A stretch of 64,000 nucleotides of DNA from Verrucomicrobiales bacterium (GTDB taxonomy: Bacteria > Verrucomicrobiota > Verrucomicrobiia > Verrucomicrobiales > DEV007): the NCBI GenBank assembly GCA_024638765.1, contig JAHEJT010000004.1:174-64173 (forward strand), read 5' to 3'. Below are positions 2,891-55,132 of this stretch, piece by piece. The stretch's first letter is position 1, and every line of letters begins with the position of its first letter. A program made the position numbers and the translations under genes. The notes beneath the pieces were generated by a model that worked only from the letters and a program-made list of their open reading frames with translations, did not search any database and was not told the DNA's origin.

Positions 2891-4552
2891 ACGGCTGCGA
2901 AGCAGCCCCGCTCCCGCCCGGAAGGTGTAGAGATCCGCATCCCGCAGGAAGATCTCCAGCCGAATGACCTCACCCTTCAGTGAATCGAGCTCCTTTCCTC
3001 TCCAGTTTACGGAATGCGATACGCTGTCACCGGAAAAAGGGACACAGTCCGGATAGTCAAATCCCTCGATCGGCTTCCTCCTCGCGTCGCTCACCCGCAC
3101 TTTCAACTCGCCTTCCGAGGCGTCCGCATTCAACACCAGGTCGCCGCCGGGCCAGACGATGGTCCGCGTCGCGACCACCCCGCCCCCACGCGGTCCCCGC
3201 AATGAAATAATCCCTTCCTTGCGCACCGTGGCCAGACCCACCGCCCCATTCCGGTCCGGCGTGCCGTGTGGTCCGTCCCAGCCCGTGTAATAGAGATACC
3301 ACTTGTCGCCCACCTCCACCCACGAAGGGCTCCCGAAGATCATCTCGTCATCCCAGGATCCCTCCGGGCCGTATTCGATCAGCTTGGGCCGGCCTGGCAA
3401 GCGGTCGAACTGAATCCCATCCCGGCTCCAGGCCAGTTCCGTGTAGATGAAATCATTCATCCGGAACGGCTCCAGAAATCCCCAGTAAATCCCCGAGTAA
3501 TACCGCGTCGGCATTCCGTAAAAGAAATTGAAATTCGTTTCGTTGTCCGCCTCATCCGGAATCAGGATCGTTTGAGGCTCACTATCCTCCATCCAATCCG
3601 TCCACAGCGTCCTGCTGTGCATGCGGGCGATCCGCCGGGACGCGCCCGTGTCGAGCATATCCTCACCCCAGGCCCGGTAAATGTGCTTGGCCCGGCAGTA
3701 GAGGACATACTCCGCGCGCGTCGGATCCCAGCACACGGTGTTGGGATGATCGCTGTGCAGCTGCGCAATGCGAGTGTCGCTCGCCACGTCCCAATGGATG
3801 CCATCCCTGGATCCAATCACGCGGATCCCGTTGAGATCCCCGATGCCTCGACCCTTGGCGCGATACATCATCAGGTAACGCCAGCCGCGGCGGTCTTTTT
3901 CGGGGACCTCCAGAAGACATGGCGCACATGACTCCATCTCCGGCCGGTCGAGTCGGCCTATGAGGACATTGTTGGGCGTGCCGCGGTGCCAGGGAAAAAG
4001 GTTCAGATCCGGTTTCTCCCAGTGCACACCGTCCTTGGACTCCGCGTATGCGATGCGCGTCTGGAATTTGCGGCCTTTCATCTTGGCATCCGGCAGGACT
4101 TCCTGGTTCTCATCCGCAATACCCTCGCCACTGACTGGATAGTTCGCCTGGTAATACATGCGGAAGGGACCTGCATCCCCGTCGCGCACCACCCAGAGAT
4201 AACTGGGCTTGTCCCCGGTCATCACCGGGTTAGCTGGATGCTTTTCCGGCTGGTGGAAGATCCTTCGCACCGCTTCCCGCTTGTATTTGATCGCCCAATG
4301 ATTATCGACAATGTACCGGTCGAACACGAACTGAGGTTCCAACCCGATTGCGACCGGTTCCTCGGGAATCCCGGCGCCGTGGAGACTGCCGATCCCGAGC
4401 AGGATCAAGAGGCCGATGCAAAGGAATTTGCTGAAAGTTCCGTGTCCAAGACACGTCCTCAGTCCTCGGCCTCGGAAGTTTTGGCAACTTCCGCTACAGG
4501 CCTCAAATCGCCCGTAGCTGGTAATCTCTGCTTCGCGTCCATTCGCGTCCAT
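2888..4552 (-). CDS. Secreted beta-propeller glycoside-hydrolase-like protein (GH32/43/68/130-type fold is a guess) with a C-terminal beta-sandwich
   Basis: ORF 2888..4600. Signal-like segment FSKFLCIGLLILLGIGSLHGAG. Recurrent propeller-blade-like motifs: AESKDGVHWEKP, GSRDGIHWD, AWSRDGIQFDR, WYLYYTGWDG. The start is uncertain: ATG 4600 overlaps the upstream gene by 35 nt, and ATG 4552 lies inside a 10-bp tandem repeat. Confidence 0.55.
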   Translation of the reverse strand: MDANGREAEITSYGRFEACSGSCQNFRGRGLRTCLGHGTFSKFLCIGLLILLGIGSLHGAGIPEEPVAIGLEPQFVFDRYIVDNHWAIKYKREAVRRIFHQPEKHPANPVMTGDKPSYLWVVRDGDAGPFRMYYQANYPVSGEGIADENQEVLPDAKMKGRKFQTRIAYAESKDGVHWEKPDLNLFPWHRGTPNNVLIGRLDRPEMESCAPCLLEVPEKDRRGWRYLMMYRAKGRGIGDLNGIRVIGSRDGIHWDVASDTRIAQLHSDHPNTVCWDPTRAEYVLYCRAKHIYRAWGEDMLDTGASRRIARMHSRTLWTDWMEDSEPQTILIPDEADNETNFNFFYGMPTRYYSGIYWGFLEPFRMNDFIYTELAWSRDGIQFDRLPGRPKLIEYGPEGSWDDEMIFGSPSWVEVGDKWYLYYTGWDGPHGTPDRNGAVGLATVRKEGIISLRGPRGGGVVATRTIVWPGGDLVLNADASEGELKVRVSDARRKPIEGFDYPDCVPFSGDSVSHSVNWRGKELDSLKGEVIRLEIFLRDADLYTFRAGAGLLRSR

Positions 4553-4553
4553 T
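4532..4553. repeat. Perfect 10-bp tandem repeat TTCGCGTCCA x2.2 (ATTCGCG-N3 phasing) at the 5' end of the GH-like gene
   Basis: Read directly. Same ATTCGYG core and 10-bp period as the array at 55045..55081. Confidence 0.8.
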
Positions 4554-4565
4554 GGCGGTTCTCTT

Positions 4566-7500
4566 TCACTCCAAGCTGTCCAAGAACGCCACCAGGTCAA
4601 TCAACTCCTCCGGCGTCATCGTCTGATCCAGCCCCATCGGCATCAATGACATCCGGCCGGGACGGATCTCTTTAATCGAATCGCGCGGCACCGGCTTCTC
4701 TTCCGCAGCGGCATCGACCAGAAACAGGGTATCGGCAGTCTCGCGCCGAATGATCCCGAAGTGCGTTTGCCCGTCATCTGCGATGATTTCCCAGGGCTCG
4801 AAGTCCCGGGACAAGGTGGTGCTCGGGTAGAGTATCGACTCCAGGAGATCGCGCTTCGTCCGGATCCTGCCGACGCGATTGAGATCCGGGCCCACTTCAC
4901 GGCCCACGTCTCCGATCTTGTGGCAGGTCATGCAGGCGCCCTTCCCCGCGGCAAAAACCTCCTTGCCGCGCGCGGCACTGCCCCTGACGAGCCTGGGCGC
5001 CAACTCCGCGAGCCGCGCTTCCCGGTTCTCGAATTCTTTCTCCAAACGCTCCACCAGCGGTTTGGCCCGGTCGTAAACTTCCGGAGGAAACCGTGTCAAC
5101 GTGCGGCGGAACTCACTGGGCGAGAGTGCGGCGAGCACCTCGGATTCCTCCAACGCCTGCACCATGGCTATTCCCAGTTCCGCGTCCCGCATGCGATCGA
5201 AAACATTGATCAAGAGAGGAAGTTCCATGGGACCCGCGGTCTTCAACAACGGCGCCACCTGCATCCGTTGTTTCATCGTCAATCGCGCACCCGAAAGCAT
5301 GGCGGCAGCCTCCAACCGCTGGGATCCCGCCGCGCCGGGCGCAAGCAATCCCCGGAGCAAATCCAACGCCGCCTGGCTGATGGCCCCGGACCCTTTGGAC
5401 ACCGCAGCCAGGGCATCGATCCGGACCAGGGAAGGCCGCGAATCATCGTCCGCGATGGTACGCAACTGCTCATCGAAACGATCGGTATCGACTTTTTCCA
5501 GGGCGGCGAGCGCACCCCGGAGTAAAGTTTCTTCCTCCGAATCCAGGGCCGATGCGATCCCCCGTTCCCATTGCTGAAACAGAGGGATTTTCTTCGGGCT
5601 CCCCGCGATTATTTCGAAGCCAGTGCCCCTCTTCTTCTGACCCGCGGCACCGACGAATCGCGCCACCAGCGCCTGCATAGCTTTATGTTCCAGATGCAGG
5701 GAAGCCAATTCGGGGAGAATGACCCGTCGGCGCTCGGAGAGCCCGCCCTCGTCCAGCCACCCTTGAAATTCTGCGGCAATCCCGCCGGCCCAATCCGGGC
5801 GTCGCTTGGACACCTCCACTGCCGCGGCGGAGAGCTCGGCGGAAGCCGAGTCAAAGAAAGGCAAGACGTCACCCGCGGCCAACTTGGAAGATTCCATGCC
5901 GTCCAACGCCCAGAGCACACGCCGCTGCACATCCGCGGAGGCGCTTCGCAGTCCGCGCGCGGTGCCTTCGTAATCGTCGATCTCGATCAACGCGTAAATA
6001 GCGGCATGATCCCGGACGCGGTCGTAAGACCGCTCGGCATACTGGAGCAACGCGTCCACTGCCGCGCGATCTCCGATCCGCCCCAGCGCCCGCGCCGCCG
6101 CCATCTGCACCGCGGGCGATTCATCCTCGAGCAGCAGTTTTATCAGCGGCGCGACGGCTTCCCGGTCCCGTGTCTTCCAAATGCCGTTGCACGCCGTGTG
6201 CCGGAGGGAAGGGTGCGCATCTCCCAGCGCCCGCCGGATCACGGCGTTGGCCGCATCCGATCCGATCCGCGTCGCAGCCCAGACCGCGTTGCGCCGCGCC
6301 CCGACGGATTGCGAGCCGAGCGCTTTATTTAGTGCCGGGACACTGGCGTCTCCCCGCGCCGCCAGCTCCAGAATAGCACGGTCCCGCACCGCGAAGCGCG
6401 CGTCATCCAGCAGGCCGGCGAGCTCTTCGAAAGCAGCCTGTCCCCAATCAATCTGCAATCCGCGCGGGTCGTCCTTGAAATCCACAAGTCCGGCGTTGCG
6501 CACCCGGTAAATCGCGCCGGGGATTTCCGGCTTCGCGATCTGGGAAGTGGGACAACCGTTGCGAAACCATCCGCCGGTGTCGATCACCAGCAGGGTGCCG
6601 TCGGCGTCCTCGAGGACATCGGTCAAATGGGAGTCTGGATCGTCGATCACCAGGAAATCCTCGGTGCGCGCGTGCGAGAATGTCCCGCCTGCCGCTTCCA
6701 CGGTGGTCCGGGTGATTTTGTGAGTGTTGAAATGGGAGGTGAAAATCAGCCATTGATCATTAAACAAGGCGGCGCGCTTGAATCCGGGCACCGCTCCGTC
6801 GGTGATGGAATGCCGGTACCGGGTCATCCCGGAAATCGCGACATGCCCGAAGTTATAAAACTCCGGCAGAAGATCGCCGGTGCGCGTAAACTCCTCCAAG
6901 ACGGCTTCCTGATCGTAGCGCGGGTAAGCCCCGCCGTATTGCCAGTGGACCAGGGTGTCGCCGCGCGGTCGCCCGTACATGAGATTGACGCTCCCGACGA
7001 TCTCGCCCTCGGGCGTGAAATCGATTTCCACGGGATTATCCATGCCGCCCCCGGCGTAGATCTGGACGTCGCCCCCGTCGGGCGCGCACGACCATATGCG
7101 CGCGCCTTTCCCTTTGTGAATGAGATTGCCATCACGGTCGTGGACATCGAGGTCCTTGCGGCCGTGCACCCAGAAAATCCGTCCGTTCGGATGGAGAAAC
7201 GGGCCGTGAAGGTCCGCGGCGTTTCCCGTGTACCCGAAGCCCGTAACAATTTCCTGGCGCACATCCGCGACGCCGTCGTCATCGGTATCCTCCAGGCGCC
7301 AAATGGACGGCGCCGCAGTCACCCAGAGCGCCCCGTCATGCCAGAGCGCCCCCGAAGGAAAGGTCAGCTTGTCGGCGAAAATCTTGGACTTGTCGAAGAG
7401 ACCGTCGCCATTGGTGTCCTCCAGCAGGCGAATGAAATTCGGTTTCTCTGCATCCAGTTCCTCCGCTTTGCGATTCACGCCCGCGGCCTCCGCCACGAAG

Positions 7501-9140
7501 AGGCGGCCGCGATCGTCGAAATTAGCCATCATGGGATGACGCGTCAGCGGCGGCGCGGCCGCCACCTCCGCCACCAATCCCTCCGGCAACGTCATGGGCG
7601 GGACGTCCACTTCCGGATCCATGACCTGGGGTATCGGCCCGCGGCCTTCCTTGGCGCGATCGATGTGGCGTTGCTTCGACTCCTCGTCAAACCAGAAAAG
7701 CCGCGTCTGCGATCCGCCGCCGTTCCAGAGATCGTATTTCGCCAAGGCATGCTCCGCGAAAAAGGCGTCGACCTTTTCCTTCAACGCAGCCTGCCGGTCC
7801 GCCAACGCTTCGTCGCCCGCCAGGTTCCGCCTTTCTCCCGGATCCTCCACGAGATGATACAGCTCCTCGTGCTCCTCACCGCGTCGTTCGACGTATTTCC
7901 AGTCCTCGGTCCGCACGCAGCGCAGCCCCTCGTATTCGTAATAGACCTCGTCCTCCCAATCCGGCACCGCCTCTCCCTGCAGCACCGCAGAAAAATCGCG
8001 CCCCGGCAGTTTCGGCTCGGTCGGCTTTCGCGCCTCCAGTCCCAAATAGCCGAGCACCGAAGGCAAAAAATCGTAATTGCTCACCATGATGTCGCTCACC
8101 CTCCCGCCGGGAATGCCGGGCGCGGATTGTGCACGGTCGGCGCGATGCCGGAAAATCATGGGGATATGCATGGAGAACTCGCGCGCGTTGACCGGGCGCG
8201 TGTGATCACCCATGCCCCAGAGCCCGTGCTGACCCCCCGCCCAGCCCTGGTCCGCCGCGAAAATCACCAGGGTGTCCCCGGCGATACCGCAGTCCTCCAG
8301 TTTCTGCATGACCGCGCCGACCCCGTCATCGACCGCGCTCAACTCCTCGCCGTAGCGGCGCATGCTGGTGAGATTGCCGAAGTACTCCCGGTTGGACTGT
8401 TGCCAGGGGTGGATGGCCCCGCGCGGAAATGAGTGCATCGGTTTATCCGCGTAATAAGCCGCGTGCCGGTTGCCGGAGGACTCCAGCTGGTAGCGGCTCA
8501 ACCCGTAAGGACCGTTGAACGCAAGATAGAGAAAAAAGGGGCCGTCCTTATTTGAATCAATAAATTTGCACGCGTGCTCGGTCCACAGATCCGTCAGGTA
8601 AGTCGGCTCCACTCGGGTCTCACCATTTTCGATGACGCGCGCGCCGTGAAAGGTGCTCGTCCCGCCGTGCGGCATCGTGATCCAGTAATCGTCGAGTCCT
8701 TCCTGGGGTGATTCGTTGGCGCCCAGGTGCCACTTTCCCACCAGCCCGCACTTGTATCCCTCGGCCTTGAGAATTTCCGGGAGCGAGGTGAACTCTTCGA
8801 GGCTATTGCGAGCTTCCGGTCCCGTCTGCAGCCTGCCGCCCGAAAGAAAGTTATGCACCCCGTGCTGTGACGGCATCAGCCCGGTGAGATAGGTCGCACG
8901 TGTCGGCGAACAGACGGCATTATTGCAGAAGGCGCGTGAGAAGCGCACGCCTTCCGCCGCCAGTTTGTCGATGTGGGGCGTCTTGATATCCGGATTCCCG
9001 TAACACCCCAGGGTCCAGGCCCCGTGGTTGTCGGTGAGGATAAAGACGACGTTGGTTTTGACGGCAGAAAAAGAATTAGAACCGCAGATGGCGCAGATGG
9101 CACAGATAATAGAGGGAAGATGTGGAGGTCTTTTTCTCAT
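4566..9140 (-). CDS. Giant fusion protein: Cys-type sulfatase + PVC 'membrane-bound dehydrogenase' beta-propeller + HEAT repeats + C-terminal c-type haem domain
   Basis: ORF 4566..9308 trimmed to ATG 9140 (signal peptide MRKRPPHLPSIICAICAICGSNSFSA). Sulfatase motifs VVFILTDNHG, CSPTRATYLTG and GKWHLG. The propeller begins near PLTRHPMMANFDDRGRLFVAEA. HEAT-like repeats follow (SPAVQMAAARALGRIGD etc.). CMTCH haem motif near the C-terminus. Confidence 0.85.
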   Translation of the reverse strand: MRKRPPHLPSIICAICAICGSNSFSAVKTNVVFILTDNHGAWTLGCYGNPDIKTPHIDKLAAEGVRFSRAFCNNAVCSPTRATYLTGLMPSQHGVHNFLSGGRLQTGPEARNSLEEFTSLPEILKAEGYKCGLVGKWHLGANESPQEGLDDYWITMPHGGTSTFHGARVIENGETRVEPTYLTDLWTEHACKFIDSNKDGPFFLYLAFNGPYGLSRYQLESSGNRHAAYYADKPMHSFPRGAIHPWQQSNREYFGNLTSMRRYGEELSAVDDGVGAVMQKLEDCGIAGDTLVIFAADQGWAGGQHGLWGMGDHTRPVNAREFSMHIPMIFRHRADRAQSAPGIPGGRVSDIMVSNYDFLPSVLGYLGLEARKPTEPKLPGRDFSAVLQGEAVPDWEDEVYYEYEGLRCVRTEDWKYVERRGEEHEELYHLVEDPGERRNLAGDEALADRQAALKEKVDAFFAEHALAKYDLWNGGGSQTRLFWFDEESKQRHIDRAKEGRGPIPQVMDPEVDVPPMTLPEGLVAEVAAAPPLTRHPMMANFDDRGRLFVAEAAGVNRKAEELDAEKPNFIRLLEDTNGDGLFDKSKIFADKLTFPSGALWHDGALWVTAAPSIWRLEDTDDDGVADVRQEIVTGFGYTGNAADLHGPFLHPNGRIFWVHGRKDLDVHDRDGNLIHKGKGARIWSCAPDGGDVQIYAGGGMDNPVEIDFTPEGEIVGSVNLMYGRPRGDTLVHWQYGGAYPRYDQEAVLEEFTRTGDLLPEFYNFGHVAISGMTRYRHSITDGAVPGFKRAALFNDQWLIFTSHFNTHKITRTTVEAAGGTFSHARTEDFLVIDDPDSHLTDVLEDADGTLLVIDTGGWFRNGCPTSQIAKPEIPGAIYRVRNAGLVDFKDDPRGLQIDWGQAAFEELAGLLDDARFAVRDRAILELAARGDASVPALNKALGSQSVGARRNAVWAATRIGSDAANAVIRRALGDAHPSLRHTACNGIWKTRDREAVAPLIKLLLEDESPAVQMAAARALGRIGDRAAVDALLQYAERSYDRVRDHAAIYALIEIDDYEGTARGLRSASADVQRRVLWALDGMESSKLAAGDVLPFFDSASAELSAAAVEVSKRRPDWAGGIAAEFQGWLDEGGLSERRRVILPELASLHLEHKAMQALVARFVGAAGQKKRGTGFEIIAGSPKKIPLFQQWERGIASALDSEEETLLRGALAALEKVDTDRFDEQLRTIADDDSRPSLVRIDALAAVSKGSGAISQAALDLLRGLLAPGAAGSQRLEAAAMLSGARLTMKQRMQVAPLLKTAGPMELPLLINVFDRMRDAELGIAMVQALEESEVLAALSPSEFRRTLTRFPPEVYDRAKPLVERLEKEFENREARLAELAPRLVRGSAARGKEVFAAGKGACMTCHKIGDVGREVGPDLNRVGRIRTKRDLLESILYPSTTLSRDFEPWEIIADDGQTHFGIIRRETADTLFLVDAAAEEKPVPRDSIKEIRPGRMSLMPMGLDQTMTPEELIDLVAFLDSLE

Positions 9141-9278
9141 AAGTGAAGTTTGGACATTGCACATTGAACTTACAATGTCGAAGATCCAACGACGGTGTCT
9201 CTTCCAAAACGGTAAACGGATGAAACGGGGTCCAGCTTTCATTTTATCTATCTGCGCCATCTGCGCCATCTGCGGTTC
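9079..9278. repeat. 29-nt inverted repeat (arms 9079..9107 and 9250..9278, 1 mismatch); each arm is about 3 copies of the 9-mer ATCTGCGCC and encodes ICAICAICGS in a sulfatase signal peptide
   Basis: The reverse complement of 9079..9107 is ATCTGTGCCATCTGCGCCATCTGCGGTTC. 9250..9278 is ATCTGCGCCATCTGCGCCATCTGCGGTTC. Confidence 0.95.
9153..9179. promoter_or_regulatory. Heptamer motif GACATTG CACATTG -N6- CAATGTC in the 79-bp divergent sulfatase intergenic region; candidate operator
   Basis: Read directly: a tandem pair plus an inverted copy, centred between start codons 9140 (-) and 9220 (+). The function is inferred only. Confidence 0.35.
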
Positions 9279-10563
9279 AAAATCCGAGGCGGCACGACGG
9301 CCCAACATCCTCTTCCTGATCGCCGACGACCTCGGTTGGGCGGACGTGGGGTATCACGGCTCGGAAATCGATACCCCGCGCATCGACTCCCTTGCACGCG
9401 CCGGCGTGATCCTGGAACAGCATTATGTCACCCCGATGTGCAGCTCCACGAGAGCTTGCCTGCTTAGCGGACGTTATTCCACCCGCTTCGGACTCGACAG
9501 CGCCACCAACTCCCAGGTCTTTCCCTTCGGCACCGTGACCCTGGCTTCGGCGCTGCAATCAATGGGGTACCATACCGGTCTCACCGGCAAGTGGCATCTC
9601 GGCTCACAGCCGGTGACCGGCCCGCGCAAATTCGGGTTCACGCGCTCGCACGGAGCCTTCGCGGGCGGTGTCGATCAATACACGCACCTCTACAAAAAGG
9701 GCCCATACCAGAAGACCTGGCATCGCAACGACGTCCATATCGACGAAGAAGGCCATGCCACCGATCTTTTCGCGCGCGAAGCGATACGGTGGATCGAAGA
9801 CTCCGCCGAAGCCTCCGACAGGCGACCCTGGTATATCCAGGTCGCCTTTACCGCGGTCCATATCCCCATCCAGGAACCGGAGCAGTGGGTCGAGCCTTAC
9901 AAAGACCGCATCGAAAACGAATCACGGCGCCGCTTTGCAGCCTGCGCCGCCCACATGGATCACGCCATTGGGGAAATCGTCGACGCGCTCGCGCGGACGG
10001 GGCAGGAGGAGGACACCCTCATTATCTTCACTTCGGATAACGGCGGCTCCGGTCCCTGGAAACCCTCAGGACTCTACCCCGGCACTTACGCACCCTGCCC
10101 GGTCCTCGGCAACAATCTCCCGCTGCGCGGCGGTAAGGGCACCGTTTACGAAGGCGGGATTCGCGTGCCGGCGTTCGCCCACTGGCCCGGGATCCTGCAG
10201 CCGGGTAAATTGCACCATCCCATCCACGTGGTCGACTGGATGCCGACGCTCCTGAATTTGGCGGGCTGGGAATCGGAAGAAGATCTGCAATGGGACGGAC
10301 GGGATGTCTGGCCGCTGCTCACGGGCGCGGAAAAATTTCCCGAATCGCGTGTGCTCTACTTCAAGCGCGGCCGGAATTATGCATTACGCAAGGGGCGATG
10401 GAAGCTGGTGCAATCGGGGTCGGAGCGGGTGGAGCTCTTCAACCTCGATAAAGATCCTAATGAAGAGGACGACCTTTCCCGGCAAGACGCTTACCTGACC
10501 CGCGTCGATCAGCTCACCGCCTTGCTCGAGGAGCAGCGGCGGCTTGATGGAGGGGAGAAGTGA
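9220..10563 (+). CDS. Arylsulfatase (Cys-type, variant CSSTR motif)
   Basis: ORF 9028..10563 trimmed to ATG 9220 (signal peptide MKRGPAFILSICAICAICGSKSEA). ILFLIADDLGW, MCSSTRACLLSGR, GKWHLG, FTSDNGG. Confidence 0.9.
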   Translation: MKRGPAFILSICAICAICGSKSEAARRPNILFLIADDLGWADVGYHGSEIDTPRIDSLARAGVILEQHYVTPMCSSTRACLLSGRYSTRFGLDSATNSQVFPFGTVTLASALQSMGYHTGLTGKWHLGSQPVTGPRKFGFTRSHGAFAGGVDQYTHLYKKGPYQKTWHRNDVHIDEEGHATDLFAREAIRWIEDSAEASDRRPWYIQVAFTAVHIPIQEPEQWVEPYKDRIENESRRRFAACAAHMDHAIGEIVDALARTGQEEDTLIIFTSDNGGSGPWKPSGLYPGTYAPCPVLGNNLPLRGGKGTVYEGGIRVPAFAHWPGILQPGKLHHPIHVVDWMPTLLNLAGWESEEDLQWDGRDVWPLLTGAEKFPESRVLYFKRGRNYALRKGRWKLVQSGSERVELFNLDKDPNEEDDLSRQDAYLTRVDQLTALLEEQRRLDGGEK

Positions 10564-21129: not shown

Positions 21130-23304
21130 CTACGCGGTGTAACTCAGTCCCCGGATTTCCTCGAGAGTTGTGTTTCCAGCCAGGATGTTGCGAAGTCCTT
21201 CCTGGTAAAGCGTCAGCATGCCGTTTCTGGCGGCCAACTCGCGGAGCTTGCTTTGGGGGGCGCCTTCCTCGACGAGATCGCGCATCTCCATAGTCACGGT
21301 CGTCATTTCCATGAGAGCCAATCTCCCTTTGTAACCCGTGTTATGGCATTCCTCGCAGCCGACCTTCTCGTAAATGGGATGTTTCAGCTCGCCCTTGATT
21401 ATTCCCTGCTTTTGAAGAATCTCTTCGATTTCCTTGGTCTCTTCGGAAGGTCTCTTGCAGTAAGGGCAGATCCGGCGCACCAGCCTCTGTGCCTGGGTCA
21501 TGGCCAGAGAGTCGCAAAGCAGGAAGGCGGGCACCCCCATGGAAAGCAGCCGGGAGATAGCGCGCAGGCAGTCGTTAGCATGCAATGTGGTCAAGACGAG
21601 GTGACCCGTAAGCGCCGCATTCACTGCGGCGGTGGCGGTCTCTTCGTCGCGACACTCACCGATCAGAATGACATCCGGGTCGGAACGCAGTAAGGCGCGC
21701 AGACCTGTAAGGAAATCGATGCCGTGGATAACATCGGTCTGCGTCTGGTTGATCCCTTCGATTTCATATTCGATCGGGTCCTCGATAGTGTGAATGTTGA
21801 TATCCTCTTCATTGACGCTGTTGAGCAAGGCGTAAAGGGTGGTGGTTTTACCACTACCGGTCGGTCCCGTCACAAGGATGAGACCCTGGTCGCGCGTCAT
21901 GGCGTTGGCCACGATATCGCTTTGCCGCTTGGAGAAATTCAACTCCGAGAGTTCTTTCAAGCCGTCCTGCTTGTCGAGGAATCGAAGAATCAATTTCTGA
22001 AGATCCTTCCGGCAAGGTACCGCTGCGGCACGGACGTCGACGCGGCGCGAGCCAAGAGACATCGCAAAGCGACCGTCCTGGGTATCCTTCCGGTTCTGCC
22101 CCATGTTGGCATAGTTCTTGATCAGGGCGATGAATCGCGGGAGGAGTTCCTCGGAACCGCTGTAAATAGTTTTCAGACTCCCGTCGATACGGGCGCGGAA
22201 GCGGGCCGTGTTATAATAGCGCTCGAGATGGACGTCACTGGCGCCTGCCGAAACCGAGTTGTAAAGAACCCAGTGGATGATTTCTTCGGCACTATGATTG
22301 ACGTTCTTGGGATCGATCGCGTAAACATCCTCAGGAATGATTTCGACCAAGTTCGTGCTGTCGGAATAAGCGTAATCATCGTCAGAAAGCGTGGCCGAAT
22401 CCATGCTTAGGCCGATGTCGTTACTGCGGGCAATGGCTTTGCGGATGGCCTTGCTGTCAGCAAGGACGTTGACGAACTCGATGGGATCGTTGCCTGAGGA
22501 GAGCCATTCGTCCTCGAAGGCGTAATTCTTTTCGGTCTCGCTGAGCAGGTATACGCGATGCTTGCCGGTATAGACCGGGTAGACGCCGTGCTTTTCCAGG
22601 AGCAGGTTCGGAAACTCTTCCTGGCGAGGCGCGTCCTCGGGATTAAAGCAGAGCACCGGCCGGCTGGCCGCGAGATAATGGAGGGCGATTCCCAGATGCG
22701 GCTGTATCGCATTGAACTTGGCGATATCCATTTCATCGCCTTTTTTCGCCGCGTCATGGTAAGCGCGCGCAAGCCGCTCACGCTCCACTTCATCGTAGGG
22801 GTAATTCTTGATCAGCCAGTCAAAGGCCGCTTCCAAATTCCCCTGTTCGATCTCGGGTTTGGGGAGGTGCTCGAGAGGATTTTCCTTGGGCAGCGGATTC
22901 GCAGAAACGCGCTGCACGATTTCCCGGCGGATATTCTCGTACTGAGTGGGGTTAATCGCCACCTTGACACTGAGGCAATCAGGCACTCCCCAGACTTCCT
23001 CTGATTTAGGATTGTGGTGGGCGAAGACAAGCAGCGGGCCGAGGTTGGTTACGGGAAGCCAGGGCTCCTCGCTGTGGGGCCAGCGGCCGAGGTGGCGGAC
23101 CAGCATCTCCGCCTCTACGTTGCAGGAAGCGCGCGGCAGTTCCACCGGCATGATGCCAAAGTGAACGGCCACGCCTTCGAGCGAAACCAGGCTACTGGCT
23201 TCTTTAGGCTGATCCCGCTCCGGGTTCAACAGGCGCGATTCGAAGGCGGAACTCACTTCTCCGGCTTCGTTGCCTTGGTTGACTTCTACTTGGCCTAGGT
23301 TCAT
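21130..23304 (-). CDS. pilB: PilB/GspE-family secretion/pilus-assembly ATPase with a long N-terminal region
   Basis: Walker A GPTGSGKTTTLYA. Tetracysteine CPYCKRP...CEECHNTGYKGR. 724 aa. Confidence 0.9.
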   Translation of the reverse strand: MNLGQVEVNQGNEAGEVSSAFESRLLNPERDQPKEASSLVSLEGVAVHFGIMPVELPRASCNVEAEMLVRHLGRWPHSEEPWLPVTNLGPLLVFAHHNPKSEEVWGVPDCLSVKVAINPTQYENIRREIVQRVSANPLPKENPLEHLPKPEIEQGNLEAAFDWLIKNYPYDEVERERLARAYHDAAKKGDEMDIAKFNAIQPHLGIALHYLAASRPVLCFNPEDAPRQEEFPNLLLEKHGVYPVYTGKHRVYLLSETEKNYAFEDEWLSSGNDPIEFVNVLADSKAIRKAIARSNDIGLSMDSATLSDDDYAYSDSTNLVEIIPEDVYAIDPKNVNHSAEEIIHWVLYNSVSAGASDVHLERYYNTARFRARIDGSLKTIYSGSEELLPRFIALIKNYANMGQNRKDTQDGRFAMSLGSRRVDVRAAAVPCRKDLQKLILRFLDKQDGLKELSELNFSKRQSDIVANAMTRDQGLILVTGPTGSGKTTTLYALLNSVNEEDINIHTIEDPIEYEIEGINQTQTDVIHGIDFLTGLRALLRSDPDVILIGECRDEETATAAVNAALTGHLVLTTLHANDCLRAISRLLSMGVPAFLLCDSLAMTQAQRLVRRICPYCKRPSEETKEIEEILQKQGIIKGELKHPIYEKVGCEECHNTGYKGRLALMEMTTVTMEMRDLVEEGAPQSKLRELAARNGMLTLYQEGLRNILAGNTTLEEIRGLSYTA

Positions 23305-23365
23305 TTCGGGGCAGTCTCTAGTCTCTAGTTCTTCTTAAATCGGATTCTGGGAGGAAAGTCCGGTG

Positions 23366-23938
23366 CTATGGGGCGGCCTGAGGTGGGATCGGAGGGATCT
23401 TGGGTTCCGGATCCTGGCTGGTGTAACTTGAAAGCGCAGAAGACATCCGCCCTTGACCGGAAGTGCCATCCGCGCCATTGGTAAAATCGATTTTGATACC
23501 GCTGCCCGCTGTGCCGGCCTTTAACAGTTCGAAAACTTTTCCGTTCCATCGGATACGATAGGTCTCGTCGTCGCTGGAGACTGCAGGATCCCAGTAAGGA
23601 GTCACGTACGGTGAACCGGCGTCGGCCAGTTCGTCGTCAGGGTGCCGCCACTGCAAAGTGGTAAGGACATCCATCTCGTCATCGGTATTGGCATCATCCC
23701 GGGCGAGCACGATCTCGTAATTGGTCTGCCCGAAACTGGCGATACAGTTGTTCAGATGGTTGATGAGATCCTGTGCAGCCCCATTTTTCGAGCCCTCGCG
23801 CACGCGGCTGAAAGCGGCCAGGGCACCGGCGGTGAGCACTCCGACGATAGTGATGGTCGTCAGGATTTCAACCAGCGACATGCCTCCGCGATTGGTGCGC
23901 GCGGTGGATGAAATTCCTTTGTGAAGTGATGTCCTCAT
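23366..23938 (-). CDS. Pseudopilin / minor pilin (prepilin-type N-terminus)
   Basis: NRGG / MSLVEILTTITIVGVLTAGALAAF. Confidence 0.8.
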   Translation of the reverse strand: MRTSLHKGISSTARTNRGGMSLVEILTTITIVGVLTAGALAAFSRVREGSKNGAAQDLINHLNNCIASFGQTNYEIVLARDDANTDDEMDVLTTLQWRHPDDELADAGSPYVTPYWDPAVSSDDETYRIRWNGKVFELLKAGTAGSGIKIDFTNGADGTSGQGRMSSALSSYTSQDPEPKIPPIPPQAAP

Positions 23939-24002
23939 GTCTATCCAGCAGCTTCGGCGTAAAACCTGCGAACCGCGCCTGTCGCGGAAACCACAGGGCC
24001 GA

Positions 24003-24404
24003 TTAGTAGTCGATCGCGATTGACGATCCGCCTTCAGTCTTGGTCAGTCCGCATTTCTTCAGCGTGGTAACCGCCGTCGGCAACGCGAGACCATAGTTTG
24101 TCGGCATATAGCTGTTGAACGAGTTAGGCGCGAACGCCAGGTAAGGACTCACCAGGTTGTAGCGCTGCTCGCTCGTAGCGCCGCTCCAGGCAGTGCCCGC
24201 GGCGTCACGGCCGTTGGCCTGGACAAAAGAGGCAACTCCCATGTTCATCGCTTCCGCCCGGGCGATGGCGAGGTTGGTTTCGCTGTCGCTCTTCATCTGC
24301 ACGATATTGGGAATCGCGAGGAAAGCCATAATGCCGAGGATGGCGACCGCGGCGAGGACTTCCACCAGGGAAAAGCCTTTTACTAGGGACGTCGAGTGTT
24401 TCAT
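24003..24404 (-). CDS. Pseudopilin / minor pilin
   Basis: VKG / FSLVEVLAAVAILGIMAFLAIPNI. Confidence 0.8.
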   Translation of the reverse strand: MKHSTSLVKGFSLVEVLAAVAILGIMAFLAIPNIVQMKSDSETNLAIARAEAMNMGVASFVQANGRDAAGTAWSGATSEQRYNLVSPYLAFAPNSFNSYMPTNYGLALPTAVTTLKKCGLTKTEGGSSIAIDY

Positions 24405-24434
24405 TGGAGTCTCCGATTTTCGATTTGTGGCAGT

Positions 24435-24890
24435 TTAGGATTTGATGAGACTTACTTTGGGATAAGAGGAAGATTGCCACGTTGGAAGCTCCAACCACCA
24501 TCCCAGCTTCACCATCGCGTGCGTTTGCAGGCGCGTGTTATTGGTGGTGTGATCCGTAAAGTGATCCATGGTCTCCTCGTCGAGATAAGGTTGAATCAGA
24601 TCCTCGAGTCGTTCTTGGAAAGTCCGAGCCGTGCCCCCGTCTTCGTTGTAGAGCAGGCGGGCGTCCTCGACGGTATTGAGCCCGGAGATTTCGCTGGCAA
24701 CCCAGGCGTTGACCGCGGTTTGCAAGGTAGCCTGTTGCTGACGGGCGATGACCCGGCGAGTGTCCTGGGAGGCGTTCGAGAACTGGCTGACCGCCAGGGC
24801 TCCCATGATCGCGATCACGGAGATGACAAGGAGGAGTTCCACGAGGGTAAATCCCCCCCTGCGCTTGTGCTTGTCTTTCAGGATATTCAT
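24435..24890 (-). CDS. Pseudopilin / minor pilin (G7 tract at the leader cleavage-site codons)
   Basis: MNILKDKHKRRGG / FTLVELLLVISVIAIMGALAV. Confidence 0.8.
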   Translation of the reverse strand: MNILKDKHKRRGGFTLVELLLVISVIAIMGALAVSQFSNASQDTRRVIARQQQATLQTAVNAWVASEISGLNTVEDARLLYNEDGGTARTFQERLEDLIQPYLDEETMDHFTDHTTNNTRLQTHAMVKLGWWLELPTWQSSSYPKVSLIKS

Positions 24891-24974
24891 TCGCGGGCTT
24901 CGGGTGTGATGAGATTTTGTCGAAGTAAGCGCTGGCGATTGGGGAGTGCGGAAAATTCGTAGAGGGGAAATATT

Positions 24975-25015
24975 TTGTGGAGAAAGGGCCCTCCGGCGCC
25001 GAAGCGCCGGAGGGC
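24975..25015 (-). terminator. Strong hairpin terminator after pilin paralog 3
   Basis: The minus strand reads GCCCTCCGGCGC-TTCG-GCGCCGGAGGGC (12-bp perfect stem, UUCG loop) followed by CCTTTCTCC. A second 7-bp hairpin lies at 25029..25051. Confidence 0.6.
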
Positions 25016-25058
25016 ATTGACAATTTTGTTTCAGCTAAACTTCAGCTGAAAGCCGTGA

Positions 25059-25463
25059 TCAGGTGCCGCCACCGGGAAGGTAAACGAGCATTCCGTCCGC
25101 GGTGAGGTCCAGGAAGGTACCCGCGCGGCCCTGCTCCAGGGAGCTCAAGTTCGGAACACCAAAGAAGGTGCCGTTGAACGGGCTGCCTGCGGCAGACACG
25201 GTCGCACCGGTGACAACCTTGGCGATGGTGTTGCCTTCGTTGCCGCTCACGAGGAAGTCGAGCCCAGCGGCTTGCGCCGAAGCGTAGACAGAAGCGAGGT
25301 TCTGCGCGTTACGCTTGCTCTTGGCTTCTTCGGCTGCATCGTTGATCCGGCCGATATTCGGCACGGCGATAGCGGCGATAATGCCGATGACTGCGATAAC
25401 GACGAGCATTTCAACAAGGCTGAAGCCCGAAGTATTTTTCTTTGCGATTAGTTTCGTATTCAT
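25059..25463 (-). CDS. Type IV pilin-like protein, paralog 3 (candidate major pilin; own promoter and terminator)
   Basis: ORF 25059..25493. ATG 25463 gives MNTKLIAKKNTSG / FSLVEMLVVIAVIGIIAAIAVP. KRNAQNL..SAQAAGLDF..GVPNLS. ATG 25493 is an alternative start. Confidence 0.85.
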   Translation of the reverse strand: MNTKLIAKKNTSGFSLVEMLVVIAVIGIIAAIAVPNIGRINDAAEEAKSKRNAQNLASVYASAQAAGLDFLVSGNEGNTIAKVVTGATVSAAGSPFNGTFFGVPNLSSLEQGRAGTFLDLTADGMLVYLPGGGT

Positions 25464-25532
25464 TGGTTTTGTTTCTCCAGTTATACAATGCATGACTTTT
25501 ATTGATTTTATAAGGCCATGTATAGTTGCCGG

Positions 25533-25561
25533 AATATTCCATAATTTCTATAATTAGTCAA
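25533..25561 (-). promoter_or_regulatory. Candidate sigma70-type promoter of pilin paralog 3 (TTGACT-17-AATATT) in an AT-rich island
   Basis: The minus strand reads ccTTGACTaattatagaaattatggAATATTcc. Confidence 0.4.
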
Positions 25562-25693
25562 GGAATTGCTATGGATTTTATGGAAATTGCCGGAAAAATT
25601 TCCCCGTAGCCTTCGCATTGGGGCCAGCATCCCCTGCTCTCGGTCCCCGAGAGTGAAGATTTCGTTATAACTCGTTGATTACGAGCTATTTAC

Positions 25694-26920
25694 TTAACTT
25701 TTCGGCAGGATGGTATCGCCGAGGCTGAAGATCGGGCCGTAAATGGCGTACACCAGGAGACCTACCAGGCTGCCCAGCGCCATGATCGTGATCGGCTCAA
25801 TGATCTTATCAATCTGACTCGCGATCGCGTCCAACTCCTCTTCATAGTCGTCCGCGATCTCGTTGAGCGGCTCGGTGCCCGAGCCCGTCTCCCCAGCGAC
25901 CTCCATGATTCCGCAGATGTTGCGGCCGTCGTCCCCCAGCCAGTGGGACTCCACCATGAAGCTCTCCTGAATGGAGCGCCCTTCCGAGATATGGTCCCTG
26001 ACCCGGTTGAAAAACTCCTTGTAATAGTAATTGCCCGCCCCATCCGAGGTGATGTCCAGGGCAGTGTTCAGACGCACATTCGAATCCACCAGCATGGACA
26101 GCGTGCGGAAGCTGACCGTGGCAGCCGCTTTGCGGATGATATTTCCCAGCACCGGAATCCTCACCATCACCTTCTGAACCGGCGTCTGACTCATGATCCA
26201 TCCCCATTTCTTAAAGAGCATCACCAGCCCGACTATCGGGATAAGCACGAGGTAAGGCTGTTTCAATAGGGTGTCGGAAAGCTTCATGAGAACCATGGTC
26301 GGCAGTGGCAATTCCGCCTTGAGCGAACCGTAAAGTTTCACCATCGCCGGCACCAAAGTGAAACTCATGGTAATGATGACGCCCAGCCCCAGAGTCAGGA
26401 CGATGGCCGGGTAAATCATCCCGCCGCGAAGCTTCCGGATGATGGTCATGGTCTTCTTCTGCCCGGTGGCAAGCTGCCGGAATACCCGGGGCAGCTGCCC
26501 GGATTCTTCACCGGCCCGGATCAGGGCCAGGATCTCCGTGGTGAACACCCGGGGATGTTTGGCCATGGCGTCACTTATTTTTTCACCATTGGAGATATCG
26601 TGGCAGAGATCGGCTATGATCCCCCGGTAAACCGGAGATTTCATGCGGTTGCTCTGCAACTGGAAACTCTTGACCGTGGGAATGTCTCTCTCAAAACACT
26701 TTGCCAGACCGCTGAAAAACGCCACGCGGTCAGCCAAGGGCAGGCTGGGGCTCGTCAGCCGCTGAATCTTCTCATCCAGTCCCGTGATGGTGGTGACTTG
26801 GGCAGTCTCACTGGTAGTTTGTCCCGCGCCGATCAGGGCGCGATCATCGCTAAAGGTGTCGACGAGCAAGTGCATTACCCGTCCTGTATGAACATTGGTC
26901 AGAGAGACTTTCTTAAGCAT
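25694..26920 (-). CDS. pilC: PilC/GspF-family inner-membrane platform protein
   Basis: 408 aa. Duplicated GspF-type domains with three TM segments, and a typical C-terminus (AIYGPIFSLGDTI). Confidence 0.9.
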   Translation of the reverse strand: MLKKVSLTNVHTGRVMHLLVDTFSDDRALIGAGQTTSETAQVTTITGLDEKIQRLTSPSLPLADRVAFFSGLAKCFERDIPTVKSFQLQSNRMKSPVYRGIIADLCHDISNGEKISDAMAKHPRVFTTEILALIRAGEESGQLPRVFRQLATGQKKTMTIIRKLRGGMIYPAIVLTLGLGVIITMSFTLVPAMVKLYGSLKAELPLPTMVLMKLSDTLLKQPYLVLIPIVGLVMLFKKWGWIMSQTPVQKVMVRIPVLGNIIRKAAATVSFRTLSMLVDSNVRLNTALDITSDGAGNYYYKEFFNRVRDHISEGRSIQESFMVESHWLGDDGRNICGIMEVAGETGSGTEPLNEIADDYEEELDAIASQIDKIIEPITIMALGSLVGLLVYAIYGPIFSLGDTILPKS

Positions 26921-26980
26921 CGTAATTCTCCAGCAGGTTTAAGATCGGAAATTTTCGGGCGGAATTGAAATGTCAGTGCC

Positions 26981-27430
26981 CTAGCGAATCGTATTTCGAA
27001 AGGCGCGCACCGAGAATTGGCGCGTCGGCAACGTCCCCTGAGATCCGCCGGTCCAGGAGCCCTCGGTCCAACCCCCTTCGTCCTTCACGGAATCAAGAGT
27101 GAGCGTAATCACCTGTCCCTCCAGGTTGGCTTCAGCGGGCGAGACGGTCACAAAGGTCGGTGCGCCGCTCCGGGCGGGCTCGGGTGGCATGATAGCTCCG
27201 ATTGCCGCCGGATCGAGGCCCAACTGGTAAAGGCGGGCATGGCATTCCAGGTAATTGACCCCGCGCGCCAGACGATGGCCCATTTCCTCCTGGGTCGTCA
27301 TCGTCAGGCTGAAGGAAGCAGCTGCGCTGATCCCTATCAGGAGAATTCCGCTAGCGACGAGCACTTCTATGAGCGAATAGCCCGAACCCTTCTTCCGCGC
27401 TGTTTGTGTATGAAATTCTGCTGGTTTCAT
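26981..27430 (-). CDS. Pseudopilin / minor pilin
   Basis: KKGSG / YSLIEVLVASGILLIGISAAASF. The start overlaps the upstream stop by 4 nt. Confidence 0.8.
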   Translation of the reverse strand: MKPAEFHTQTARKKGSGYSLIEVLVASGILLIGISAAASFSLTMTTQEEMGHRLARGVNYLECHARLYQLGLDPAAIGAIMPPEPARSGAPTFVTVSPAEANLEGQVITLTLDSVKDEGGWTEGSWTGGSQGTLPTRQFSVRAFRNTIR

Positions 27431-28821
27431 TTTCTATACATCTCTATCCAGGCGTTACGCACATCAAAGCCGGCAAGGCTCAGCGGATCGACAGCCTCTG
27501 CAAACACGTCGACTCGGCCGGGCCCCCCAAGATTCTCCTGAATAATGCTCCGGTCAGTTCGGATTCCTCCCTTTAATGTCACGGTCCCGCCGAAAGCGTT
27601 CTGAAGCCTCGTCGTCGTGTTCTCCACAACCAGCATCAGACGCCACTGCGGGTTGGAATTGGAGTTCCAGAAAACCACGCCGGTTTCTCCCCCTCCGGGA
27701 GGATCCTTCTTGACTCCGAGAATCAGCAGGCGGTTGTTGGCGCCTAACATGAAAACCGATCTGAGATCGTTCAGGTCGGTCGGCCGCTGATTAAGCACGA
27801 TATAAAGGGGTGGAAGTAACGCGGCGTTGGCATAGTCCGTCGGCGTCTCCTGTCCCTGCAGAAAGAGCCACTGCGCGTTTTCGATGTAGGCGCCTTCCAG
27901 GGCGCCGTCATCCAGTTGGATCGTGACGGTGCCACTGCCGTCGGATATGACCCCACGGTCGGGTCCGTGCGCCGTATTTCCGTTGACCGACACCGGGCCC
28001 TTGGAGAGCACTACCTGATAAAGGGAGTTTTCCTCGTTTCCAACGCCGGGGCGGATGACGTTCAGCTCTCCGCCGTAAGCTTCCGCTCCTGAATACTTGT
28101 TGTTGGTTCTGGGCGGAAAGGGGTAATTGCTTGGAAAAACGGCCGGACCGGTGGGATCTACCGGGCTCTGCAATGCCAAAGTCGATGTGGGCAACGGCGG
28201 GGTGATGTAGTCGATGGAAGTCAAGGTGCCCATATTGCCACCGGGTTCCGCCGTATAGATGAGCGATCGGCCGTAGATATTGAGACTTCCATCGACGAGA
28301 TTCGTCTCCCCCGGACTCAGTGTCGGCGTGTGCAGTGCGAAGATTTCTCCGCTCAGCGGACTGGAGCGCGATCGGATCTGCGCGGTGTAAGTCTCCGCGG
28401 ACACACCTTGCTTATCTGAAACGACGAAATCCAAGTCCTGGGTGTTGAGGGTGCCGGAAGACGTGGCAAACTGGTTGAACAACCCGGTGGTCGGGGATGC
28501 CAGCGGCGACTGGGCCCATGTCGCGGGGGCCGGAATCTCGTACCTAAACCAATTGCCGGTTCCGAGGACCGCGGGGGAAACGGTCGGCGGAGTGGTTTCC
28601 GTGACTACGTCCCGGTAAATCTTTTCCTTGGCGGCAGCCTTACTGTTTTGGATGCTGATACGGCGGTCCATGGTGAGGTCAAGCGCGTCAACGGCGTTAA
28701 TGCGCGCGTTGATCAGGGAGACCCAAGCGGTGAGGCCGAGGGTTCCCAGAAGGCATATAACAAGCGCCATAATCGCGATGCTGCCTTTCTGACCTTTTCT
28801 TGGTGAGATAGTTCTTTTCAT
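27427..28821 (-). CDS. Large (464 aa) PilX/GspK-like minor pilin lacking Glu5
   Basis: ORF 27427..29145 trimmed to ATG 28821. N-terminus MKRTISPRKGQKGSIAIMALVICLLGTLGL resembles the E5-less GspK/PilX_N type. The rest has no motif I recognise. Confidence 0.55.
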   Translation of the reverse strand: MKRTISPRKGQKGSIAIMALVICLLGTLGLTAWVSLINARINAVDALDLTMDRRISIQNSKAAAKEKIYRDVVTETTPPTVSPAVLGTGNWFRYEIPAPATWAQSPLASPTTGLFNQFATSSGTLNTQDLDFVVSDKQGVSAETYTAQIRSRSSPLSGEIFALHTPTLSPGETNLVDGSLNIYGRSLIYTAEPGGNMGTLTSIDYITPPLPTSTLALQSPVDPTGPAVFPSNYPFPPRTNNKYSGAEAYGGELNVIRPGVGNEENSLYQVVLSKGPVSVNGNTAHGPDRGVISDGSGTVTIQLDDGALEGAYIENAQWLFLQGQETPTDYANAALLPPLYIVLNQRPTDLNDLRSVFMLGANNRLLILGVKKDPPGGGETGVVFWNSNSNPQWRLMLVVENTTTRLQNAFGGTVTLKGGIRTDRSIIQENLGGPGRVDVFAEAVDPLSLAGFDVRNAWIEMYRK

Positions 28822-28846
28822 TTTGATCGGTGAAATCACGGTGACA

Positions 28847-29872: not shown

Positions 29873-29973
29873 TGGTTTGTTTGTGTTTCCAGGCGGCCGC
29901 GAAGATCTTTCCTGTAACTTCCCGGCTGGTCCTCAGAACTCAACCCGGGAAATCACTCTGTTTTCGCAGGGCC

Positions 29974-30585
29974 TCAGTTCTTCTTCCCTCCAGGACCCTC
30001 GCCAAAGGAAGGCAAAGAAACGACACCTTCCCTCGCCTTCTTCGTCTGGGTGTAGGTCTGGATGTCTCGTTCCTTGGCATTGCTGTCTCCAGGTTGTCCT
30101 TTGAGGACAAACTCGACGCTTGGTTCCATGTTGATCGGTAAAATAAGTTTTCTGCCGTCGTAACGGGATGTTCTCTTGTCCAGCCAGGCCAGCTCCGCCT
30201 GTACTTCCGAAACGTCGCTGACAATAATCAACTCGGTCTGCCCCTTAAGGAGCTTGGGAACGAGTTTCCCTTTTTCCAGGATCAGATCTCCCACGAGAAC
30301 CTTAACCGAGCCGTTGTCGCCTTCGCTGACACCGTTGACAGCGAGATTGGCGAAAATCCTCCGGATCCGGCTTTCTTCGGACTCCTTGTCATAATAGGCT
30401 TGAACCTGTTTTTCGGCTCGGACTGCAAAGGGATTCCTTTCCGATTCCGGAATAATGATCGGACTTTTCTGCTCCGGGAGGATCCCGATGGCTAAAGCGG
30501 TTTCCTGTGCTTTCGAAGAAAGCGCGCAGAGCGATAACAGGGCCGAGAGAAGGCTGCAAAGTTTCAATGAGTTTCGCGATTTCAT
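29974..30585 (-). CDS. Secreted hypothetical protein in the PilP position
   Basis: ATG 30585 gives the signal peptide MKSRNSLKLCSLLSALLSLCALSSKAQE. A TTG at 30606 that overlaps the upstream stop is an alternative. Assigned by position only. Confidence 0.5.
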   Translation of the reverse strand: MKSRNSLKLCSLLSALLSLCALSSKAQETALAIGILPEQKSPIIIPESERNPFAVRAEKQVQAYYDKESEESRIRRIFANLAVNGVSEGDNGSVKVLVGDLILEKGKLVPKLLKGQTELIIVSDVSEVQAELAWLDKRTSRYDGRKLILPINMEPSVEFVLKGQPGDSNAKERDIQTYTQTKKAREGVVSLPSFGEGPGGKKN

Positions 30586-30602
30586 GGCGACTTGATTCTG
30601 CT

Positions 30603-31163: not shown

Positions 31164-31181
31164 GATGATCGATGAGTTAAA

Positions 31182-31751: not shown

Positions 31752-31772
31752 AGCGTGATTGCCAATTGTGCT

Positions 31773-32642: not shown

Positions 32643-32643
32643 T

Positions 32644-55044: not shown

Positions 55045-55132
55045 ATTCGCGCTAATTCGTGCTCATTCGTGTTCATTCGTGTCAGAAAATCTTTAAACAC
55101 GAATTTTACGAATTCCACGAATGGCCACGAAT
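55045..55132. repeat. Inverted arrays of the heptamer ATTCGYG / CACGAAT (4 + 4 copies, 9-10-bp phasing) in the 5' leader of the sulfatase gene
   Basis: ATTCGCG, ATTCGTG, ATTCGTG, ATTCGTG start at 55045, 55055, 55065 and 55075. CACGAAT, TACGAAT, CACGAAT, CACGAAT start at 55098, 55107, 55116 and 55126. Confidence 0.9.

Follow-up and report, generated by a model that had tools for sequence, protein, structure and literature searches.

The stretch of DNA examined here, 64,000 nt of contig JAHEJT010000004.1 from a Verrucomicrobiales bacterium (GCA_024638765.1; hereafter the window, in which the arm positions below are counted), carries two divergent sulfatase genes whose signal-peptide codons contain the two arms of a short, nearly perfect inverted repeat (Table 1). 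On balance, we regard these arms as dispersed hairpin-repeat DNA that has become coding sequence by capture, and not as the ends of a genetic switch; one of them was probably copied from its counterpart. The core arms read GAACCGCAGATGGCGCAGATGGCACAGAT (9079-9107) and ATCTGCGCCATCTGCGCCATCTGCGGTTC (9250-9278), and are reverse complements save for a single mismatch, TGT versus TGC, which encodes cysteine either way. In a repeat search the arms lengthen to 36 nt (92%), leaving 140 nt in between; their longest stretch of perfect identity is 23 nt, and the pair ranks as the top-scoring short-range inverted repeat of the window. Each arm is a tandem array of a 9-nt unit, in 2.8 copies according to Tandem Repeats Finder, and an 18-mer search allowing up to 3 mismatches returns 6 matches in the window against 0.10 expected, 4 of which are overlapping registers of the two arms. 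The left arm, on the minus strand, reads (T)ATC TGT GCC ATC TGC GCC ATC TGC GGT TCT AAT TC, and the right arm (T)ATC TGC GCC ATC TGC GCC ATC TGC GGT TCA AAA TC. The original prediction, made from the same DNA, had described the arms in these terms (about three unit copies each, one synonymous cysteine mismatch, and the peptide ICAICAICGS on both, beginning at codon 12 of the minus-strand gene and codon 11 of the plus-strand gene), and direct reading of the sequence confirms that description in every detail.

The start codons of both genes agree with the gene calls on record, and the two ATGs are separated by 79 bp. The signal peptide of the minus-strand gene is MRKRPPHLPSIICAICAICGSNSFSAV and that of the plus-strand gene is MKRGPAFILSICAICAICGSKSEA, followed by ARRPNILFLIADD. 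No in-frame start is found between either arm and the respective catalytic N-terminus (NVVFILTDNHG and NILFLIADDLG), so that making the enzymes entails translating the arms. Both leaders show the features of a Sec-type signal peptide, with basic n-regions (MRKR and MKR) and a hydrophobic h-region, and by inspection would be cleaved between SEA and A in one case and between SNS and F, or FSA and V, in the other. We infer that the arms are translated and, from inspection and hydropathy, that they function in export. A lipobox reading of ICAIC before G was ruled out, as position -1 is occupied by Ile. The leaders appear to be singular: when the two proteins, and a version with the alternative start 9175, were looked up by exact match, no further contig was returned, the 90% clusters of both proteins have a single member each, and an exhaustive phmmer search with a 30-residue N-terminus found nothing comparable among 1.84 billion representative proteins, its matches being one unrelated repetitive protein and one spurious open reading frame (ORF) that spans repeat arrays. 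A search with the two signal peptides joined gave a single weak match, to an unrelated zinc-ribbon protein.

The arm sequence itself recurs in other genomes and in metagenomes, where we find it as a module of the form (ATCTGCGnn)x2-3 ending in ATCTGCGGTTC or ATCTGCGGATAA. A scan of one genome per species with the query GCCATCTGCGCCATCTGC matched at least 120 loci. The matches listed include 16 arrays of three units with the end ...ATCTGCGG, spread over 7 assemblies. Five of these assemblies are from Verrucomicrobiota (two Limisphaerales bins, UBA6176, Ja1_bin-3224 and a bin labelled Akkermansia, the last with 7 contigs), and the remaining listed matches include incidental coding ones. The window's own arm tail, CATCTGCGCCATCTGCGGTTC, is present in at least 120 metagenome contigs against fewer than 2 expected by chance, and almost all of the matches listed are three-unit arrays of the form ATCTGCGnnCATCTGCGCCATCTGCGGTTC. 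Exact identity over 26-29 nt, which includes the non-repeat GGTTC tail, is common to the window arms and many non-coding arrays elsewhere. The ICA frame of arrays in other genomes usually ends within two codons (GGA TAA or GGA TAG), and no use as a signal peptide was seen among the arrays examined. Many of the listed metagenome matches to the arm tail belong to a very abundant and longer dispersed repeat from one metagenome sample series (contigs Ga01940xx; L121-L240 in our numbering). This longer repeat contains ATCTGCGTTCATCTGCGCCATCTGCGGTTCATTCCC followed by tandem GTTCAAGG-type units, translates as ...GAGPGALPSAFICAICGSFPAGRAGGGPGAFKVQRFKVQRFK, and has three copies within 12 kb in L201 and two in L183.

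In the Verrucomicrobiota genome bins, the arrays have an inverted partner (CCGCAGATnnCGCAGAT...) 80-84 nt upstream, and the two together form a hairpin element of about 135 nt that is intergenic and fits tightly between ORFs. The element is built from arms (CGCAGATnn)3 and (ATCTGCGCC)3 ending TATCC...GGATA around an interior of 80-84 nt, often with an apical CACCCnGCGGGTGA, and RNAalifold supports the terminal arms alone. Arrays with an inverted partner at a distance of only 11-35 nt were seen as well, so that the hairpins of the module span 11-84 nt between arms overall. Shorter hairpins, with 11-60 nt between the arms, occur in metagenomes; one of them (L144) lies 5 nt past a stop codon and about 30 nt ahead of the ATG of a secreted protein. 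The ORFs beside these elements have unrelated functions (FG-GAP, peptidase M3, ABC exporter, PLP enzyme, GNAT), and among the flanking ORFs examined no association with sulfatase genes was found. Rfam covariance models match neither the locus, nor the rest of the window, nor the elements of other genomes; the exact arm sequence appears in the searchable literature as an unrelated primer only, and a scan of viral contigs returned two matches, both incidental and coding. Taken together, this points to a widespread class of hairpin repeats with units of 9-10 nt, present in environmental bacteria that include Verrucomicrobiota. Rfam has no family for the class, and we found no description of it.

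The same class is found elsewhere in the window. Using two or more units of ATyyGyGnn(n) as the class pattern, we count 6 arrays, distributed over 3 loci, where Markov shuffles give 0.43. One of these loci is a lone array next to the large sulfatase gene, which carries the same GCGGTTC end as the locus arms and for which no inverted partner was found nearby. Another is a hairpin with four units of 9-10 nt plus their complements, located just upstream of a third sulfatase gene (ATG 55031) and bounded on its other side by the stop codon of a gene with a PQQ_2 domain; its computed RNA fold is a series of 7-bp helices split by small internal loops (-47 kcal/mol, z = -4.1). All three class loci in the window touch sulfatase genes, two of them belonging to one gene, and no class arrays occur in 147 kb of sequence from the nearest relatives. 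The co-option of a dispersed short repeat as signal-peptide sequence, which the original prediction had offered as an alternative, is well supported, being backed by arrays in genomes, in metagenomes and in the window itself.

The properties of the unit go far in explaining why both arms are read in the same frame. Its six reading frames give ICA, SAP, LRH, GAD, AQM and RRW, of which ICA alone is hydrophobic, and the maximum Kyte-Doolittle values over 10 residues are 2.87 and 2.96 for the two cores at the locus, compared with 2.40 and 2.97 for the two orthologues computed. Selection for export would therefore keep the ICA frame and no other, and because the 9-nt unit equals three codons, slippage can alter the length of the core but never its frame. 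At the same time, the identity between the arms at the DNA level exceeds what the peptide requires. The same codon is used at 8 of the 10 positions, including the rarely used GGT; under independent choice of codons for the same peptide at the codon usage of the window, such agreement has P ~0.03. The identity also spans the non-repeat tail, GGTTCwAAwTC.

Comparison with relatives helps to separate what is ancestral at the locus from what is new. The closest homologues of the large gene come from Verrucomicrobia/Verrucomicrobiota genome bins with no more than 63% identity, and for orthologues of the two genes the identity does not exceed 71% and 63%. These orthologues are never adjacent in the contigs of relatives, and the repeat is likewise not shared. 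In the four orthologues closest to the large gene, the protein starts with MRKR or MRKQ, 25-28 residues ahead of KTNVVF (MRKR and 27 residues in the window), while an MRK start occurs in no other protein of about 240 homologues seen. Their signal-peptide cores have the same length as the one in the window and are unrelated to ICAICAIC, and the upstream DNA is similar (..CACACTyyrGAAATGAGAAAG in orthologues and ..CAAACTTCACTTATGAGAAAAAG in the window). Since start, length and upstream DNA are kept, the start codon and n-region inside the interior are ancestral, and only the core has been replaced. Given that the orthologues are never neighbours and their signal peptides are unrelated, the arrangement is young and lineage-specific. 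In one relative's contig (L248), the promoter region and start (ATGAGAAAG) of the large sulfatase orthologue are directly duplicated (5771-5840 and 5943-6015), the second copy lying upstream at a distance of about 170 nt, with a small insert rich in hairpins in between.

The original prediction had taken the locus primarily for a possible invertible promoter and leader cassette of 142 bp, in which recombination between the arms would invert 9108-9249 and so swap promoters and N-termini. In a programmed form of this, a site-specific recombinase would flip 9109-9248 and exchange the promoters, leaders and N-termini of the two sulfatases. Several features of the locus are compatible with such a programmed inversion. 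Inverted repeats of 29-36 nt enclose about 140 bp with both start codons, the arms are unusually perfect and share a frame, so that both chimeric leaders would stay open and hydrophobic, and there is an operator-like motif between them; some known invertible regions also have no recombinase close by (PMC9881135). The prediction's remark that inversion would keep both ORFs in frame is formally correct; however, the hydrophobicity of the ICA frame alone explains the same fact without any inversion, because an array within a signal peptide survives in that frame only. As to what the segment contains, both starts, both leaders and the 79-bp spacer are there as described, whereas the promoter role given to the spacer is an assumption: no sigma-70-type promoter consensus was found within 8800-9600, the spacer included, and hence none inside the segment. 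The inner GACATTG/CAATGTC motif is present and has no second occurrence in the window; from its sequence, this ACATTG triple looks like an operator, possibly one shared by both promoters.

There is, however, no positive evidence for a cassette of this kind, and we consider a programmed inversion very unlikely. A recombinase, integrase or transposase domain was found in none of the 30 large ORFs scanned in the window, where the neighbouring genes encode a peptidase M1, an SSF transporter, type II secretion system (T2SS) and pilus proteins, a histidine kinase, DUF7133 proteins, sulfatases and others. Either orientation would leave each gene with a start codon, an n-region and a hydrophobic core, so that both states would be on, with at most a swap of promoter strength. 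The comparison of orthologous sulfatase pairs that the prediction had suggested also fails to support a switch, as neither the gene pair nor the repeat is conserved, and the arm sequence is a common non-coding repeat elsewhere, present without the need of a switch. The perfect identity between the arms also amounts to only 23 nt. This lies at or under the lower limit for efficient RecA-dependent exchange in E. coli. If the locus were nonetheless a true invertible cassette, that is, a coding-compatible, promoter-swapping one built from a domesticated dispersed repeat, which seems to us highly improbable, a single inversion would trade promoter, leader and N-terminus between the two sulfatases and still leave both proteins exportable.

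Our preferred explanation, capture of the dispersed repeat, would on the simplest path involve two steps. The captured module would comprise two or three 9-nt units with the core ATCTGCG, ending as in the family module, which elsewhere is non-coding and intergenic and found mostly in Verrucomicrobiota. Within the 5' coding regions of the two genes it would supply ICAICAIC as the h-region of both Sec-type signal peptides, displacing the ancestral cores. In the first step, one arm would have been gained from the repeat family; in the second, a local templated copy would have been made into the other gene, either by a strand or template switch of the quasipalindrome type or as a short gene-conversion patch between the two inverted 5' ends. 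Within a divergent gene pair, such a copy would automatically yield an identical sense sequence, and only in-frame outcomes would survive. Quasipalindrome (template-switch) mutation creates or perfects, in a single event, an inverted copy of a short sequence close by. The patch left behind would have sharp limits and an unaltered length, as seen at the locus, but being a mutational mechanism and not an element, such mutation accounts for the second arm and not for the source of the first. The second arm probably derives from the first by a local templated event, and the steps may have taken place in this order.

A few observations weigh against capture of the repeat, at least in its simplest form. 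The exact ATCTGCGCC array occurs nowhere else within the window, and the presence of an identical module elsewhere in this genome is suggested by other genomes and by two sister arrays that have different units. The export function, as noted above, was judged by inspection and hydropathy. The interior between the arms holds ancestral gene sequence and is unrelated to the interiors of the elements in other genomes (it does not resemble the 80-84 nt enclosed by the ~135-nt Verrucomicrobiota element), and because the arms flank ancestral sequence, insertion of a whole hairpin in one step cannot give this layout. Finally, the 2-nt spacers between the units also pair between the arms, better than in many pairs of the repeat family; this agrees with recent copying, but selection acting on the inverted repeat itself would also account for it.

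The copying step could also be part of a purely local history, in which a slipped 9-nt tandem repeat arose in one signal peptide and was then copied to the neighbouring gene, with the likeness to sequences elsewhere being coincidental. The repeat patch is sharply limited to 36-41 nt; within the interior, one half has no inverted similarity to the other (the score is under the shuffle mean), and the symmetry does not reach the start codons; and outside the arms there are about 20 nt without similarity, followed by the ~65% paralogous similarity of the sulfatase N-termini. All of this is in line with a local event, as are a signal-peptide length equal to that of the orthologues and the weakly periodic cores of two of them (CFAFCAFCF in P0125 and FCPFCPF in P0003). 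However, such a history leaves unexplained the exact identity, down to the GGTTC tail, with many arrays of unrelated genomes, as well as the sister arrays with the same GCGGTTC end within the window. We therefore regard a purely local origin as unlikely and an independent origin of the arm sequence as very unlikely, and retain the local copying step within the capture of a dispersed repeat.

Another possibility is that the inverted repeat is regulatory, with the arms as paired binding arrays for a protein looping the 170 bp that hold both promoters, as a cruciform, or as a shared mRNA element through which one regulator, RNA or protein, would co-control the two sulfatases. The contact of all three class loci with sulfatase genes could be taken in this sense, along with a unit spacing of about one helical turn, the strong fold of a single strand of the locus (-50.5 kcal/mol, z = -6.7) with its near-perfect arms, and the identical 29-nt sequence at codons 11-21 of both mRNAs. 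But three loci are a small sample, with two on one gene, and the elements in other genomes flank genes of unrelated function. Transcripts probably start in the interior, so that neither mRNA would hold both arms, and, as expected of a divergent pair, the sequence shared by the mRNAs is identical and not complementary. Considering also that the repeat is not conserved in relatives and that nothing points to a binding protein, a regulatory role seems improbable. The observation as such is beyond chance. The low complexity of a tandem 9-mer is all that speaks for coincidence or an assembly artefact, whereas the number of such inverted repeats expected in 64 kb is effectively zero, the genes on both flanks are intact, one N-terminus agrees with its orthologues, and the repeat is far below the assembler k-mers that cause inversions. 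We take this last explanation to be negligible.

How the locus relates to known systems is best seen by comparison with dispersed palindromic repeats. Rickettsia palindromic elements (RPEs) are found in frame within genes, and intragenic repetitive extragenic palindromic (REP) sequences are known from several species (PMC3733652). As with RPEs, the repeat is dispersed and of hairpin type, the host ORF stays intact and runs through it in frame, and orthologues lack it. However, an RPE is a whole-element insertion that adds a peptide to one protein, while here there is one arm in each of two genes, and the segment replaces the core without adding residues (27 in the window versus 25-28 in orthologues). 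The resulting peptide also has an evident use, as a hydrophobic h-region. REP units are imperfect palindromes of 20-40 nt with a GTAG or CGTC tag, and REPs, bacterial interspersed mosaic elements (BIMEs) and REP doublet-forming hairpins (REPINs) are high in copy number, mostly intergenic and often located just past stop codons, where inverted pairs 20-100 bp apart form larger hairpins (PMC3733652). The module described here is similar in being dispersed and mainly intergenic in other genomes and metagenomes, often as inverted doublets; in this window three loci of the class are found. It differs in that the locus arms are tandem units of 9-10 nt, which lack both the self-complementarity of a palindromic stem-loop and any GTAG or CGTC tag, and in that the RNA of the class folds as 7-bp helices with small internal loops between them. 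No gene for a REP-associated tyrosine transposase (RAYT), the mobiliser of REPINs, was found among the large ORFs scanned in the window. Unlike a miniature inverted-repeat transposable element (MITE), the locus has an interior unrelated to those of the Verrucomicrobiota elements, and no direct repeat that could represent a target-site duplication was found around the arms in the sequence read. Programmed inversions such as fimS and those of Bacteroides share with the locus short inverted repeats around a segment of at most a few hundred bp at the 5' end of genes. They usually, though not always, adjoin an invertase and give on/off states or alternative alleles, with coding-altering examples known (PMC9881135). 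In the known cases both orientations are seen in reads or strains, whereas the two orientations of the present locus would be nearly equivalent in function.

Some further repeats in the window were noted alongside the locus. A 27-nt inverted repeat (93%; 2662-2688 and 2801-2827, with 112 nt between the arms) lies downstream of the M1 peptidase gene, and its arm GATCCCTCGACTCCGCTCGGGATGACA resembles a palindromic repeat that is common in many environmental bacteria, with ORF artefacts of the type ...LGMT... A tandem repeat with a period of 15, 30 or 45 nt (GCCGCTGGGGCCTGC, 6 copies; 36739-36828) falls within a hybrid histidine kinase/response regulator gene on the minus strand (36297-39095). 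A palindrome of 22+22 nt (95%, no spacer; 53192-53235), probably a bidirectional terminator, separates the stop codon of the third sulfatase from a xylose-isomerase-like gene. The window also includes a type II secretion/type IV pilus-like cluster (21130-36162) with two T2SSE ATPases, a T2SSF protein and a secretin. With three sulfatases, three DUF7133 proteins and two 3-keto-disaccharide hydrolase genes, its gene content suggests a glycan-degrading bacterium of the Planctomycetes-Verrucomicrobia-Chlamydiae (PVC) type.

Table 1. Features of the sulfatase locus, other members of the repeat class in the window, and copies of the hairpin element in other contigs (positions are those of the window, except in the last two rows, where they are those of the contig named)
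Feature	Position	Strand	Remarks
Lone array CTTCGCGTCC ATTCGCGTCC ATTGGCGGTTC	4531..4561	.	5 nt past stop of large sulfatase gene
Sulfatase + DUF7133 + HEAT + cytochrome c fusion, 1524 aa (P0121)	4566..9140	-	Pfam; ATG 9140
Left arm	9073..9108 (core 9079-9107)	-	Codons 12-23 (ICAICAICGSNS) of large sulfatase gene
Interior, 140 bp, ~42-49% G+C	9109..9248	.	Both start codons, both n-regions, 79-bp spacer
GACATTG-C-ACATTG-AACTTA-CAATGTC	9153..9179	.	Two direct and one inverted ACATTG, between start codons
Sulfatase, 447 aa (P0001)	9220..10563	+	Pfam; ATG 9220
Right arm	9249..9284 (core 9250-9278)	+	Codons 11-22 (ICAICAICGSKS) of 447-aa sulfatase gene
Hairpin (ATTCGTGnn)x4, loop ~14 nt, (CACGAATnn)x4	55045..55132	.	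Class pattern
~135-nt hairpin copies	L016 1029-1164, L032 2365-2498, L033 5351-5485, L045 2007-2127 + 4454-4588		
~135-nt hairpin copies, continued	L052 1273-1406, L055 6938-7073, L058 1138-1281, L072 246-388, L105 2388-2519		

If the arms are indeed captured repeat DNA, the locus would be a natural example of selfish or structural repeat DNA turned into coding sequence of use to its host. A hydrophobic helix is encoded in one frame of a common hairpin repeat, and two neighbouring exported enzymes would use cores of this kind. It also calls for caution in pipelines that predict invertible regions from sequence alone, since the arms of dispersed hairpin repeats may mimic invertible cassettes, even within genes and in frame.

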